A program made the position numbers and the translations under genes. A stretch of DNA of 64,000 bases from the NCBI RefSeq assembly GCF_003018255.1, contig NZ_CP027440.1. One strand, given 5' to 3'. The stretch is from Escherichia coli. GTDB lineage: Bacteria > Pseudomonadota > Gammaproteobacteria > Enterobacterales > Enterobacteriaceae. Every line of letters begins with the position of its first letter. Within the stretch, counting starts at the first letter, position 1. Below the pieces are notes generated by a model. It made no database searches. It had not been told where the DNA came from and was given only the letters and a program-made list of their open reading frames with translations. Of the stretch, positions 2,737 through 7,707 are shown in pieces.

Positions 2737-3441
2737 TTAAAATCTGGCGCTAACCCCCATCGTATACAGATAGTCGCTATTGTTAGTGGTATTTTCTGCC
2801 TGAGATAGCGCAGCATAGGCAGCAATATTTTGATTGAGCAACATATCAGCGCCTACGGTGACATCCAGCCAGTTGCCGTTCTGGTTTGTCGCCGTCATCC
2901 GGCTCAGGCCTGATTGCGCCTTCCAGATATTCTCGCCAAATTGCTGGTTATAGCTGATTTGCGCCCAGGGTCGGAGATCGCCAAGCCGGGAGTCAACACG
3001 CCAGCCTAAGGTACTCACGCTGGCATGCCATAACGGATCGGCCAGCGTGGTAGTACTGTCGCCAAACTCGTTATACATCGAGGTGGTTGTGCCATCGTAA
3101 TGTAATGCCGCGACCGGGCCGGTTGTAACCTGCTCATATAAAGGAAAATTCCAGCCCATACTCATACTGCTGGTCACATCCACAGGAGTTTCTTCCGCCA
3201 GATTGACTTCCAGTCCCAGCGCCCTTTGGCTACTTTGAATACGTTGCGACAAAATATCGTTGTAATCAGGTTGATGATCGCTATCCCAGGTGTAACGCTC
3301 TGTGGAATGTCCGGGTTGCGTATCAACGATATATTCTTGTTGCCAGGCGTAAGCTGTGTTGAGAAAAAAGGCACTGATTACCACACTCGCCAGCAGGCTT
3401 AGCTGCCAGCGACCACCGCTTTTTTTTATGATCATTAACAC
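2737..3441 (-). CDS. yhjY: YhjY, autotransporter-beta-domain-like outer membrane protein
   Basis: 234-aa ORF with N-terminal signal-like segment and C-terminal ...GVSARF; conserved position between yhjX and tag. Confidence 0.8.
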   Translation of the reverse strand: MLMIIKKSGGRWQLSLLASVVISAFFLNTAYAWQQEYIVDTQPGHSTERYTWDSDHQPDYNDILSQRIQSSQRALGLEVNLAEETPVDVTSSMSMGWNFPLYEQVTTGPVAALHYDGTTTSMYNEFGDSTTTLADPLWHASVSTLGWRVDSRLGDLRPWAQISYNQQFGENIWKAQSGLSRMTATNQNGNWLDVTVGADMLLNQNIAAYAALSQAENTTNNSDYLYTMGVSARF

Positions 3442-3592
3442 GACTCCAGGGAAGAGCCGAATTCGGCAATATTATTGTCATTGTATGAAGGATATCGGGC
3501 ATAGTAGCCCTGTATTAAATATTGACTTTTTCACCGATGCGTCAAGAAAAGCGGCTGAAATTTTTACGATCGGGTACATAGCGAGGGAAAGT

Positions 3593-4156
3593 ATGGAACG
3601 TTGCGGCTGGGTGAGTCAGGACCCGCTTTATATTGCCTACCATGATAATGAGTGGGGCGTGCCTGAAACTGACAGTAAAAAACTGTTCGAAATGATCTGC
3701 CTTGAAGGGCAGCAGGCTGGATTATCGTGGATCACCGTCCTCAAAAAACGCGAAAACTATCGCGCCAGCTTTCATCAGTTCGATCCGGTGAAGGTGGCTG
3801 CAATGCAGGAAGAGGATGTCGAAAGACTGGTACAGGACGCCGGGATTATCCGCCATCGCGGGAAAATTCAGGCAATTATTGGTAATGCGCGGGCGTACCT
3901 GCAAATGGAACAGAACGGCGAACCGTTTGCCGACTTTGTCTGGTCGTTTGTCAATCATCAACCACAGGTGACACAAGCCACAACGTTGAGCGAAATCCCC
4001 ACATCTACACCCGCCTCCGACGCCCTATCTAAGGCACTAAAAAAACGTGGTTTTAAGTTTGTCGGTACCACAATCTGTTACTCCTTTATGCAGGCATGTG
4101 GGCTGGTGAATGATCATGTGGTTGGCTGCTGTTGCCATCCGGGAAATAAACCATGA
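3593..4156 (+). CDS. tag: DNA-3-methyladenine glycosylase I
   Basis: ORF frame 3356-4156; 187-aa product from ATG 3593 (MERCGWVSQDPLYIAYHDNEWGVP...) matches Tag. Confidence 0.92.
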   Translation: MERCGWVSQDPLYIAYHDNEWGVPETDSKKLFEMICLEGQQAGLSWITVLKKRENYRASFHQFDPVKVAAMQEEDVERLVQDAGIIRHRGKIQAIIGNARAYLQMEQNGEPFADFVWSFVNHQPQVTQATTLSEIPTSTPASDALSKALKKRGFKFVGTTICYSFMQACGLVNDHVVGCCCHPGNKP

Positions 4157-4593
4157 TTCGGGAAGTGCAACATTCAGAACTCCCCGCGATCCTCGAACTG
4201 TGGCTGGAAAGTACAACCTGGGGGCATTCCTTTATAAAATCGAGTTACTGGCGTGACTGCATTCCGCTGGTGCGCGATGCGTATCTTGCCAACGCGCAAA
4301 ACTGGGTCTGGGAAGAAGACGGTAAGCTTCTCGGTTTTGTCAGCATTATGGAAGGCCGATTTCTGGCTGCAATGTTTGTCGCACCGAAGGCCGTCAGACG
4401 CGGTATTGGTAAGGCGCTAATGCAGTATGTGCAGCAGCGCCATCCCCATCTGATGCTGGAGGTTTATCAAAAAAATCAACCGGCGATAGATTTTTACCAG
4501 GCGCAGGGTTTTCACATTGTCGACTGCGCATGGCAGGATGAAACCCAACTACCCACCTGGATTATGAGCTGGCCGGTGGTTCAAACGCTGTAA
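4153..4593 (+). CDS. yiaC: GNAT-family N-acetyltransferase YiaC
   Basis: 146-aa ORF; ATG overlaps tag stop (ATGA); acetyl-CoA-binding-like RRGIGKAL motif. Confidence 0.88.
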
Positions 4594-6895
4594 GTGTCAG
4601 TTCCGGACCGTTGTATTTTTCCAGCCATGCCAGCGCCGTATTACCCGCACAGCCATTCCCCAGCCGCGAGCTGGGGAGATCTTTGGTCAGCACGTTCACT
4701 GCGCCGTTTTTACAAATACCGTCAGCGGTTAAATCCAGATCCGGCCATGCCCCTTCGTGAATGCAAATCACGCCAGGTTTAATTCCCTCGCTAATGACTG
4801 CCCCGGCAAGAATTTGCCCGCGTGCGTTCCACAGCCGAACAGTATCGCCATCTTGTATGCCGCGCGCCTGAGCATCGTCAGGATGAATGGTGACAGGCTC
4901 ACGGTTTGCCACCGCGTACAATTCGCGCAGAGAACTGTAATTCAGCTGGCTGTGCAGACGATGTGCCGGATGAGCAGAAAGTACCTGCAACTGTTCCGGT
5001 TCGGCATTGCCCTGCCATTCGTCCGGCTCCAGCCACATTGGATGCCCAGGGCAATCCGGATAAGCGTAATCGGCAATACGCTGCGAGAAGATTTCAATCT
5101 TGCCGCTGGCGGTTTTTAATGGATGCGCCTGCGGATCGCGGCGAAAATCGGCGAAGCGAATAAACCGCTCGCTGTCCGGGTTTTCCGGCATCTCAATTAA
5201 CTGGTTGGCTTGCCAGAACTCAGCAAATGGCGGCAATTCAACCTGCTGGCTTGCCCCGCGTTGCCGGGCAACGTTATAAAACGTTTCCAGCCATTGCAGC
5301 TCACTTTTTCCTTCCGTAAACCGCGCATAGCCGCCCTTCTCCCAACGTTCACTTAACTCGGCAAAAACATCAAAATCATTACGCGCTTCATAGCGTGGCG
5401 GCACCACTTGCTTCATCGGCACCAGATGCTGATTACTGTAATCGCCGGTCATGGTGAGATCATTACGCTCAAAAGAGGTGGTCGCAGGCAGAACGATATC
5501 CGCGTGTTTCGCCGCCGCCGTCCAGAAGCATTCAGAGATCACCACCAGCTCCGGTTTTTGCCAGGCACGGATCAGGCGATTGGTATCCTGATGATGAGTA
5601 AAGTTGGCACCACCCGCCCACCAGATAAAACGAATATCCGGGAAATGTCGGTCCATACCGTTATGTTGATATGCGCCACCGGGGTTTTCCAGTGCTTCAA
5701 CAATGCGGGCAACAGGGATTTTATCCACCGCATCGGTGCCGCCAGGCAAACTGCCCTGCATGGAAGAGAGCACCGCAGCGCGGCGCGTGGGGTTACCACC
5801 ATTGGCAAAATGGTAAGAAAGACCAAAACCGCCGCCGGGTGTGCCGATTTGCCCCAACATTGCCGCCAGCGTGACGAGCATCCAGTGTTTTTGCTCACCA
5901 AACTGTTGGCGCTGCATTCCCCAGCCTGCCATCAGCATGGTTGTATTTTGGTGGAAAATAGCCGCCAGCTCGCGGATTTTCGCTGCGCCAACACCACAAA
6001 TCTCTGCCGCCCATTCGGCGTTTTTCGCTATACCATCACTCTCGCCCAGCAAATAAGAGGCGAAGACGGCATAACCTGTGGTGCAACGCGCCAGAAACGC
6101 TTCGTCGTGCCAACCATTTTCCACCAGCGTATGGGCGATCCCCAGCATCAACGCAACATCGGTGCCCATGTGTGGTGCCACCCACTCCATTTTATCGCCA
6201 AAGAAATCGATGGTTTCCGATCGCATTGGATCAATGCAGATCAGCTTTTTCCCGCTGTCACGCAGTGCGGAAAAGTAAGAAAGCCCCTGCTCATCGGATG
6301 CATTCCACGCAATTTTCAGCGTATTGAGTGGGTTAGCACTCCACAGCACCATGACATCGCTATGTTCCAGCACCAGCGGCCAACTGGTTTGCTGTTGATA
6401 AACTTCGCTGCCACCCACGACATACGGCATGATCGCCTGTGCCGCGCCGGTCGAATAATCCCCCAGATGCCCAGTATAACCGCCTGCCAGCGCCATATAG
6501 CGTTGTAATAATGTCGAGGCCTTATGCAGCACGCCGTTTGAACGCCAGCCGTAGGAACCAGCAAAAATCGATGCCGGACCATAAGCCTCACGAATGCGTT
6601 TATGTTGATGGTGAATAAGCTCCAGCGCCTCATCCCAACTCACGCGAACAAATTCATCCTGCCCACGAATGCCTTGCGGATTTTCCGGTGACGCAAGAAA
6701 GCCTTTGCGCACCATTGGAAATCGCACCCGCGTATTGCTGTGAACCTGGTCGCGAACCGCGCTCTGCAAGGAGTTTTCCATTCCTGTGGCTAACGCGCCA
6801 CGCGAGCTAAACACGGTTTCGCCGTCGGTTTCAACCAGCATAGGCCCCCAGTGGGCGGCAGTCAGAACGGAATATCGTGAGGATGAGTTGGCCAA
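4562..6895 (-). CDS. bisC: Biotin sulfoxide reductase (molybdopterin oxidoreductase)
   Basis: 777-aa ORF starting [19 protein letters not shown]...; length and sequence match BisC; 3' end overlaps yiaC convergently. Confidence 0.93.
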
Positions 6896-7047
6896 ACCGA
6901 AGACTCCTGAAAGGTTAGATGTATTGAGCAGTTAAATATTACTTACAAATTTCCGAGTATTCCCAGGAATAATCTTCATGTTCACGCGGCATAATCTCCC
7001 GCCACAGAACCCGTGGCAAAGAATAAAAAGGTTATTAAGGATTAACA

Positions 7048-7707
7048 ATGAAGAAACGTGTTTATCTTATTGCCGCCGTAGTGAGTGGCGCTCTGGCGGT
7101 ATCTGGCTGTACAACTAACCCTTACACCGGCGAACGCGAAGCAGGTAAATCTGCTATCGGCGCAGGTCTGGGCTCTCTCGTTGGCGCGGGTATTGGTGCG
7201 CTCTCTTCTTCGAAGAAAGATCGCGGTAAAGGCGCGCTCATTGGCGCAGCAGCAGGCGCAGCTCTGGGCGGCGGCGTGGGTTATTACATGGATGTGCAGG
7301 AAGCGAAGCTGCGTGACAAAATGCGCGGCACTGGTGTTAGCGTAACCCGCAGCGGGGATAACATTATCCTCAATATGCCGAACAATGTGACCTTCGACAG
7401 CAGCAGCGCAACCCTGAAACCGGCGGGCGCTAACACCCTGACCGGCGTGGCAATGGTACTGAAAGAGTATCCGAAAACGGCGGTTAACGTGATTGGTTAT
7501 ACCGACAGCACGGGTGGGCACGACCTGAACATGCGTCTCTCCCAGCAGCGTGCGGATTCCGTTGCCAGCGCGTTGATCACCCAGGGCGTGGACGCCAGCC
7601 GCATCCGTACTCAGGGCCTTGGCCCGGCTAACCCAATCGCCAGCAACAGCACTGCAGAAGGTAAGGCGCAAAACCGCCGTGTAGAAATTACCTTAAGCCC
7701 GCTGTAA
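7048..7707 (+). CDS. yiaD: OmpA-family outer membrane lipoprotein YiaD
   Basis: 219 aa; lipoprotein signal ending AVSGC, Gly-rich linker, C-terminal OmpA-like peptidoglycan-binding region (NRRVEI). Confidence 0.9.
   Translation: MKKRVYLIAAVVSGALAVSGCTTNPYTGEREAGKSAIGAGLGSLVGAGIGALSSSKKDRGKGALIGAAAGAALGGGVGYYMDVQEAKLRDKMRGTGVSVTRSGDNIILNMPNNVTFDSSSATLKPAGANTLTGVAMVLKEYPKTAVNVIGYTDSTGGHDLNMRLSQQRADSVASALITQGVDASRIRTQGLGPANPIASNSTAEGKAQNRRVEITLSPL

Follow-up and report, generated by a model that had tools for sequence, protein, structure and literature searches.

The convergent yiaC-bisC coding overlap of Escherichia coli, its conservation across Enterobacteriaceae and a candidate RNA hairpin within bisC

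The convergent genes yiaC and bisC of Escherichia coli overlap at their 3' ends, and we propose that this overlap is very probably a genuine and long-conserved dual-coding junction, frozen by interlocked stop codons and by the abutting cores of the two proteins, with yiaC transcription being ended by Rho. In the window, the whole 64,000-nucleotide stretch of E. coli DNA analysed here (contig NZ_CP027440.1), yiaC occupies positions 4153-4593 on the + strand, as the second gene after tag, and encodes a GNAT lysine acetyltransferase of 146 aa. On the - strand, bisC occupies positions 4562-6895 and encodes, from a TTG start, a biotin sulfoxide reductase of the DMSO-reductase family, 777 aa in length. 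Both CDSs are given by the ORF list and by annotation (RefSeq and K-12 for yiaC), and they share the 32 bp of positions 4562-4593, which are coding on both strands. The earlier note had claimed these gene identities, these stop positions and this 32-bp overlap, and all are correct according to the ORF list, the sequence, RefSeq and the MG1655 genome.

Annotation and conservation of the shared 3' ends

Pfam matches identify YiaC as Acetyltransf_1 (5e-16) and BisC as Molybdopterin plus Molydop_binding, and the K-12 annotation names YiaC a peptidyl-lysine N-acetyltransferase. The sequence NZ_AP045067.1 is 100% identical to the window over positions 3300-7100, and the PGAP coordinates given there match the yiaC/bisC overlap; the same 32 bp are shared in K-12 MG1655, where yiaC spans 3713652-3714092 and bisC 3714061-3716394. 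The locus was found in 5420 of the 5426 complete E. coli genomes. The pair therefore belongs to the convergent overlaps, being composed of two real genes on opposite strands that share 3' nucleotides and whose ends are confirmed by orthologues. This is a common feature class: RefSeq and MG1655 already carry the overlap in their annotation, and a published excludon catalogue includes the pair. A stop-free run of 32 nt on the opposite strand is unsurprising by chance, and it is the conservation of the arrangement that exceeds chance.

The surroundings of the two genes are as follows. The tag CDS (3593-4156, + strand, annotation mapped to the window) lies upstream of yiaC and overlaps it by 4 bp at 4153-4156, the ATG of yiaC sharing bases with the TGA of tag (ATGA). 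This is a classic same-strand layout, which suggests that tag and yiaC may be co-transcribed and translationally coupled. The rare TTG start of bisC (6893-6915, - strand) is supported by a strong AGGAG Shine-Dalgarno motif 8 nt upstream. The only E. coli genome in which the match is broken at the junction is that of BE104 (NZ_CP040643.1; 3695-3940), which carries an engineered-looking bisC deletion that leaves ~40 nt of the bisC 3' end and an intact yiaC stop; the 5' remnant of bisC in this strain is a partial pseudogene according to PGAP.

Conservation beyond E. coli was evaluated by a scan of one genome per species, with the last 300 BisC residues as query, which yielded 80 loci. Five of them correspond to a paralogue without yiaC and two have assembly defects at the junction, leaving 73 species which, with the window, make up the 74 analysed. 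The genes are convergent and overlapping in 74 of 76 orthologous junctions, the shared length being 38 bp in 37, 32 bp in 32 and 23 bp in five. These junctions span 20 named genera, namely Escherichia, Citrobacter, Salmonella, Enterobacter, Kosakonia, Trabulsiella, Superficieibacter, Lelliottia, Phytobacter, Leclercia, Kluyvera, Atlantibacter, Pseudocitrobacter, Silvania, Klebsiella, Raoultella, Siccibacter, Dryocola, Cedecea and Shimwellia. The two exceptions, a frameshift in a G-run in C. amalonaticus and an N in the junction of T. odontotermitis strain 01, look like assembly errors and not biology, to judge from their sequences. The alignment of the junction is gap-free, with consensus tails ending in LTAFDPPA[S/N][S/A/P] for BisC and in PTWIMxWQADQTP(SA) for YiaC, each directly followed by the stop. 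It confirmed both gene ends, neither the true end of yiaC nor that of bisC lying upstream of the overlap.

Interlocked stop codons and the ends of the two proteins

On the YiaC side, the overlap comprises 2 nt of the Ile137 codon, the codons from Met138 to Leu146 and the yiaC stop; on the BisC side, it comprises 2 nt of the Leu767 codon, the codons Thr768-Ser777 and the bisC stop. Both stops were read from the sequence. That of yiaC (TAA, 4591-4593, + strand) is the reverse complement of bisC Leu-Thr codons (CTT-ACN), and that of bisC (4562-4564, - strand), which is TAA here and TAA in 51 and TGA in 23 of the 74 species, is the reverse complement of the yiaC Ile137-Met138 codons (ATT/ATC-ATG). 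In the 38-bp form, bisC has CTG or CTA in place of CTT, a synonymous change that abolishes the yiaC stop, and YiaC is extended by two codons (6 nt) to the next CTTAC. In the 23-bp form, an earlier yiaC TAA arises from a BisC Asp-to-Asn change (GAT to AAT) in Kluyvera, and from FTP in Shimwellia. The bisC stop sits in the codons of the last beta-strand of YiaC and the yiaC stop just before the family-conserved TAFDPP motif of BisC, and in the arrangement that we propose moving either stop would damage the partner gene.

The two reading frames overlap in a phase that places codon position 1 opposite position 1 and position 2 opposite position 3; every synonymous site of bisC is therefore a second position of yiaC, and vice versa. 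For 4/6-fold bisC codons at conserved residues, the third-position entropy is 0.62 inside the overlap versus 1.34 elsewhere (Mann-Whitney p=0.0015), and for 2-fold codons 0.18 versus 0.80 (p=0.014), a comparison that involves just 7-8 informative codons and phylogenetically related species. The third positions of yiaC inside the overlap are invariant. The BisC Ala775 codon is GCC throughout the species, since its third base lies opposite the middle base of a YiaC Trp codon. The bisC synonymous sites that do vary swap residues of the YiaC tail (A/V/E/G, T/M/R), from which it follows that this tail tolerates substitution. The invariant Trp140 codon of YiaC (4570-4572) and the conserved Ala775 codon of BisC (4571-4573) share two nucleotides, so that the two functional cores lie directly against each other in the DNA. 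With the bisC stop where it is, even a YiaC that ended directly after Trp140 would share 14 bp with bisC.

The BisC end is consistent with that of its structural relatives: its C-terminus aligns to residue 778 of 780 of the Rhodobacter DMSO reductase (1eu1), and the TorA/TorZ structures end at a similar point. The second BisC-like paralogue, found at the five loci mentioned above in Citrobacter and Trabulsiella, lies in another neighbourhood, without yiaC, and is 64% identical over the C-terminal 300 aa; it ends in LTAFDEPAIVTL before its stop, keeping LTAFDEP. Since the same C-terminus is present without yiaC, the BisC-type end is independent of the overlap. A C-terminal extension of BisC was rejected as an explanation, the family members and the yiaC-less paralogue ending at the same place. 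From the aligned sequences, the contribution of BisC to the overlap is the conserved TAFDPPA motif and two variable residues. In a phmmer search with the C-terminal 150 aa of BisC, WD-40/designed beta-propeller chains were also listed (residues ~668-697, window ~4805-4894, - strand), with good whole-sequence E-values and zero passing stretches; they are probably a spurious effect of short motifs or composition.

For YiaC, an AlphaFold (AF2) model built from 48 orthologues has a mean pLDDT of 95. Its predicted final beta-strand covers residues 133-140 (LPTWIMSW; codons 4549-4572, + strand), the last 11 nt of which lie in the overlap, and P134, T135, W136, M138 and W140 are invariant in the orthologue alignment. 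The six residues that follow (PVVQTL; codons 4573-4590, + strand) are modelled as coil, with a block mean pLDDT of 64; the opposite strand encodes there the conserved BisC motif TAFEPP, which most species have as TAFDPP, and most of this tail is missing from the YiaC of Kluyvera and Shimwellia. The paralogue YjaB (PDB 2kcw) exceeds YiaC by one residue in total length, and its alignment with YiaC extends to residue 134 of the latter, just before the final strand. According to the model, the contribution of YiaC to the overlap is the last 3-4 residues of a conserved strand and a floppy tail. We propose that this tail would be an appendage whose sequence is largely set by the conserved BisC end read backwards. 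The junction is an old dual-coding arrangement of two unrelated genes, and it can be surmised that it is kept passively by protein constraints and not by selection on the overlap. The lower synonymous variation within the overlap would also be expected if the YiaC tail or an RNA duplex were under selection, so that passive maintenance is only a probable reading.

Transcript ends and the hairpin embedded in bisC

The junction had been described in the earlier note as terminator-less. This stands for intrinsic terminators in or beside the overlap, but not for the region further downstream of yiaC, where a conserved hairpin lies 63-85 nt and a published Rho region ~250 nt past the stop. The two genes leave no DNA between them in which a terminator could lie. 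The terminator scan returned no intrinsic terminator-like site on either strand within 4500-4650, and no bidirectional intrinsic terminator was detected on either strand between or at the two stops. The overlap itself is not unusually structured, MFE folding around the junction giving non-significant z-scores on the two strands (-0.37 and +0.44). A scan of positions 3300-7300 against Rfam at E<=1 gave zero matches, the promoter scan returned no candidate near the junction for an internal antisense promoter, and the SMRT-Cappable-seq supplements contain no entry for yiaC or bisC.

On the 3' side of the bisC stop, no terminator-like hairpin recurs across the 74 species, with nothing conserved in 71 of the 74. 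Atlantibacter (three loci) is alone in having a strong bisC-sense terminator-like hairpin, located +53..+85 nt after the bisC stop and embedded in the yiaC CDS, with 12-13 bp, including 8-9 GC pairs, followed by GUUUUUCUG. This genus does not have the yiaC-sense hairpin in bisC, and the arrangement may be reversed in it.

On the + strand, a Rho termination region antisense to bisC has been published with a peak at K-12 3714344 (Adams et al. 2021, PMC7815308, supplementary file 2). By coordinate offset, this peak corresponds to position 4845 of the window, 252 nt past the yiaC stop. The upstream/downstream reads are 90/23 in untreated cells and 60/112 with bicyclomycin (Rho score 7.3, p=5.5e-14), for a region that was mapped coarsely, in 800-nt windows, and from low read counts (PMC7815308). 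The same study lists neither a Term-seq 3' end nor a Rho region on the - strand for tag, yiaC, bisC and yhjY. The GC skew of the + strand is -0.07 to -0.25 over 4550-4850 (C > G), the bias that Rho loading would lead one to expect, and ~0 after 4850; the untranslated, C-over-G (rut-like) upstream RNA of Rho-dependent termination was thus found for tag-yiaC. We propose that transcription leaving yiaC would run antisense into bisC, pass the hairpin 63-85 nt on and be stopped by Rho ~250 nt on. In the other direction, bisC-sense transcription, which has no recognisable terminator, would run antisense into yiaC, a read-through that we infer solely from the missing terminator motif. The two mRNAs are complementary over at least 32 nt, and probably over 100-300 nt.

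The hairpin is the one mildly new detail of the junction. It is GC-rich and can be formed by yiaC-sense RNA at 4656-4678 (+ strand; UUCCCCAGC-CGCGA-GCUGGGGAG; 9 bp, of which six are GC pairs), within the bisC codons L-P-S-S-R-L-G-N, and it is followed on its 3' side by a weak U-rich tract (4679-4688, + strand; AUCUUUGGUC) drawn from the bisC T-K-D codons. Since it lies inside the bisC CDS, 95-117 nt upstream of the bisC stop, it cannot terminate bisC. It is possible, although we regard it as doubtful, that this hairpin is a functional 3'-end element of the tag-yiaC mRNA, a terminator embedded in bisC codons. It could act as a weak intrinsic terminator, as a stem-loop shielding the RNA once Rho has ended transcription and exonucleases have trimmed the transcript, or as a collision pause site. 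With regard to the second option, a stable upstream stem-loop could reportedly mark the trimmed end after Rho-dependent termination, as is said of work by Dar and Sorek from 2018.

Several observations argue for such a role. The hairpin is the sole terminator-like site near the junction and, when pairs are counted on an explicitly named structure, at least eight of its nine pairs are kept in 55 of the 74 species. Pair 17-35, both bases of which are synonymous sites of bisC, occurs as CG in 42 species, as GC in nine and as UA in three. Compensatory switches of this pair have taken place in four or more lineages (C. sedlakii, Kosakonia, Trabulsiella and Superficieibacter), and species neighbouring them carry G·G or C·C as intermediates. 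Rare codons occur exactly where the stem needs them, with Pro CCC in 55/55 (same-gene background 10%), Arg CGG in 22/26 (13%), Lys AAG in 28/28 (29%) and Leu CTC in 37/48 (8%), and the Lys codon of the U-tract is AAA in all 53 species that have Lys there. Over the last ~120 codons of bisC, where the mean synonymous variability is 0.70, there are two dips only, one at the overlap (0.35) and one that coincides with the hairpin and its U-tract (0.41). Furthermore, a U·G pair and the U-rich tail exist in the yiaC-sense RNA only. Against this role, the palindrome also forms in bisC mRNA, which leaves the selected strand uncertain, and the U-tract is poor; no Term-seq 3' end is reported at K-12 37141xx, the Rho-dependent read-through lying further downstream (PMC7815308). 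The stem is lost in seven genera where the overlap persists (Klebsiella, Raoultella, Atlantibacter, Cedecea, Shimwellia, Siccibacter and Dryocola). Statistically, the covariation is modest: at 0.078, the score of the hairpin exceeds the shuffled 0.033, with 0 of 500 shuffles reaching it, but a slid control (+2) scores 0.070, near the observed value. RNAalifold gave no consensus over the 74 hairpin segments because about a quarter of the species have no stem. We advance only tentatively, and as the less probable case, that the hairpin would be a selected element which sets or protects the 3' end of the tag-yiaC mRNA, or a pause site for head-on collision. If this were true, bisC codon choice would be shaped by the transcript of its neighbour across many enterobacterial genera, and the hairpin would delimit the antisense reach of yiaC-bisC, which would then behave as a true excludon.

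A further reading, which we consider unlikely, is that the overlap itself is a selected regulatory device, a convergent excludon in which the expression of one gene lowers that of the other, either by head-on collision of RNA polymerases or by RNase III cleavage of the mRNA duplex. It is in line with the listing of yiaC-bisC among the 165 convergent excludons of E. coli MG1655, defined by overlapping RNA-seq coverage in >=50% of 58 MG1655 samples (Sanmartin et al. 2025, PMC12288877, Table 1), with the conservation of the arrangement in the 20 named genera, and with + strand transcription reaching hundreds of nt antisense into bisC (PMC7815308). The earlier statement that the two transcripts are antisense at their ends agrees with this listing and follows logically in any case, for overlapping coding sequences make transcript overlap obligatory if both genes are expressed. 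By the same token, genes whose coding sequences overlap will be scored as an excludon automatically whenever they are co-expressed, and read counts at the locus are low (PMC7815308). Protein constraints suffice to explain why the overlap is conserved, the stops being interlocked and both genes constrained; the stop-codon interlock fully accounts for it. To our knowledge, there is no functional link between the lysine acetyltransferase and the sulfoxide reductase, and no anticorrelation or dsRNA data for the pair were found in the literature. That the antisense relationship regulates either gene, as the earlier note had envisaged, is rather improbable. Finally, an annotation artefact, with one gene ending upstream or yiaC not being real, is scarcely credible and is refuted by the orthologue alignment: nothing was found in its support, apart from convergent overlaps in general being sometimes mis-annotated, whereas the reading frame fixes the stop codons, the frames and the ends of both genes are retained in 74 species, YiaC is confidently modelled as a GNAT fold that reaches into the overlap with its last strand and is a named lysine acetyltransferase in K-12, and the BisC end agrees with solved family members.

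Implications and comparison with known systems

Beyond housekeeping, the importance of the yiaC-bisC overlap is little. Nevertheless, a junction frozen by its two coding sequences, as favoured here, has practical consequences. Any deletion or recoding of yiaC or bisC must spare the partner gene, and it is consistent with this that the BE104 deletion keeps the bisC 3' end and leaves yiaC intact. Effects on the 3' end of the partner are a possible confounder of yiaC or bisC mutant phenotypes, including those of YiaC acetylation studies. The junction is a clean, small example of interlocked stops freezing a convergent overlap, and would also exemplify how the RNA structure of a neighbour may constrain the synonymous sites of a CDS.

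With respect to transcript ends, yiaC resembles the genes with Rho-dependent termination in their 3' UTR (PMC7815308), as it likewise shows bicyclomycin-sensitive read-through after an untranslated stretch with C > G. It differs from them in that its untranslated 3' region is the antisense of the CDS of another gene, and in that no discrete 3' end is listed for it. The pair can also be compared with overlapping bidirectional terminators, for which collision-driven termination at convergent genes has been described, with ynaJ-uspE as an example (Ju et al. 2019; Wang et al., preprint 10.1101/2022.10.23.513370). As in those systems, yiaC and bisC are convergent, without canonical terminators, and have a stem-loop in a region that would be transcribed from both sides. 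However, the hairpin lies here within the bisC CDS, with a U-rich tail on the + strand only, and the + strand termination is Rho-dependent (PMC7815308), whereas bidirectional terminators are described as Rho-independent. The likeness to excludons is direct, since yiaC-bisC is itself on the list, but mutually exclusive expression is only a candidate property here; moreover, convergent excludons usually have overlapping UTRs and a mean intergenic distance of 95 nt (PMC12288877), whereas in yiaC-bisC it is the CDSs that overlap. The pair also resembles the convergent overlapping gene pairs of prokaryotes in general, 75 of which were counted among 663 overlapping adjacent pairs in E. coli (Huvet & Stumpf 2014). 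As in these pairs, yiaC and bisC are protein genes on opposite strands that share a few tens of bases at their 3' ends. Nothing essential differs between them, and yiaC-bisC stands out only by its retention in 20 named genera and by the readable interlock of its codons.
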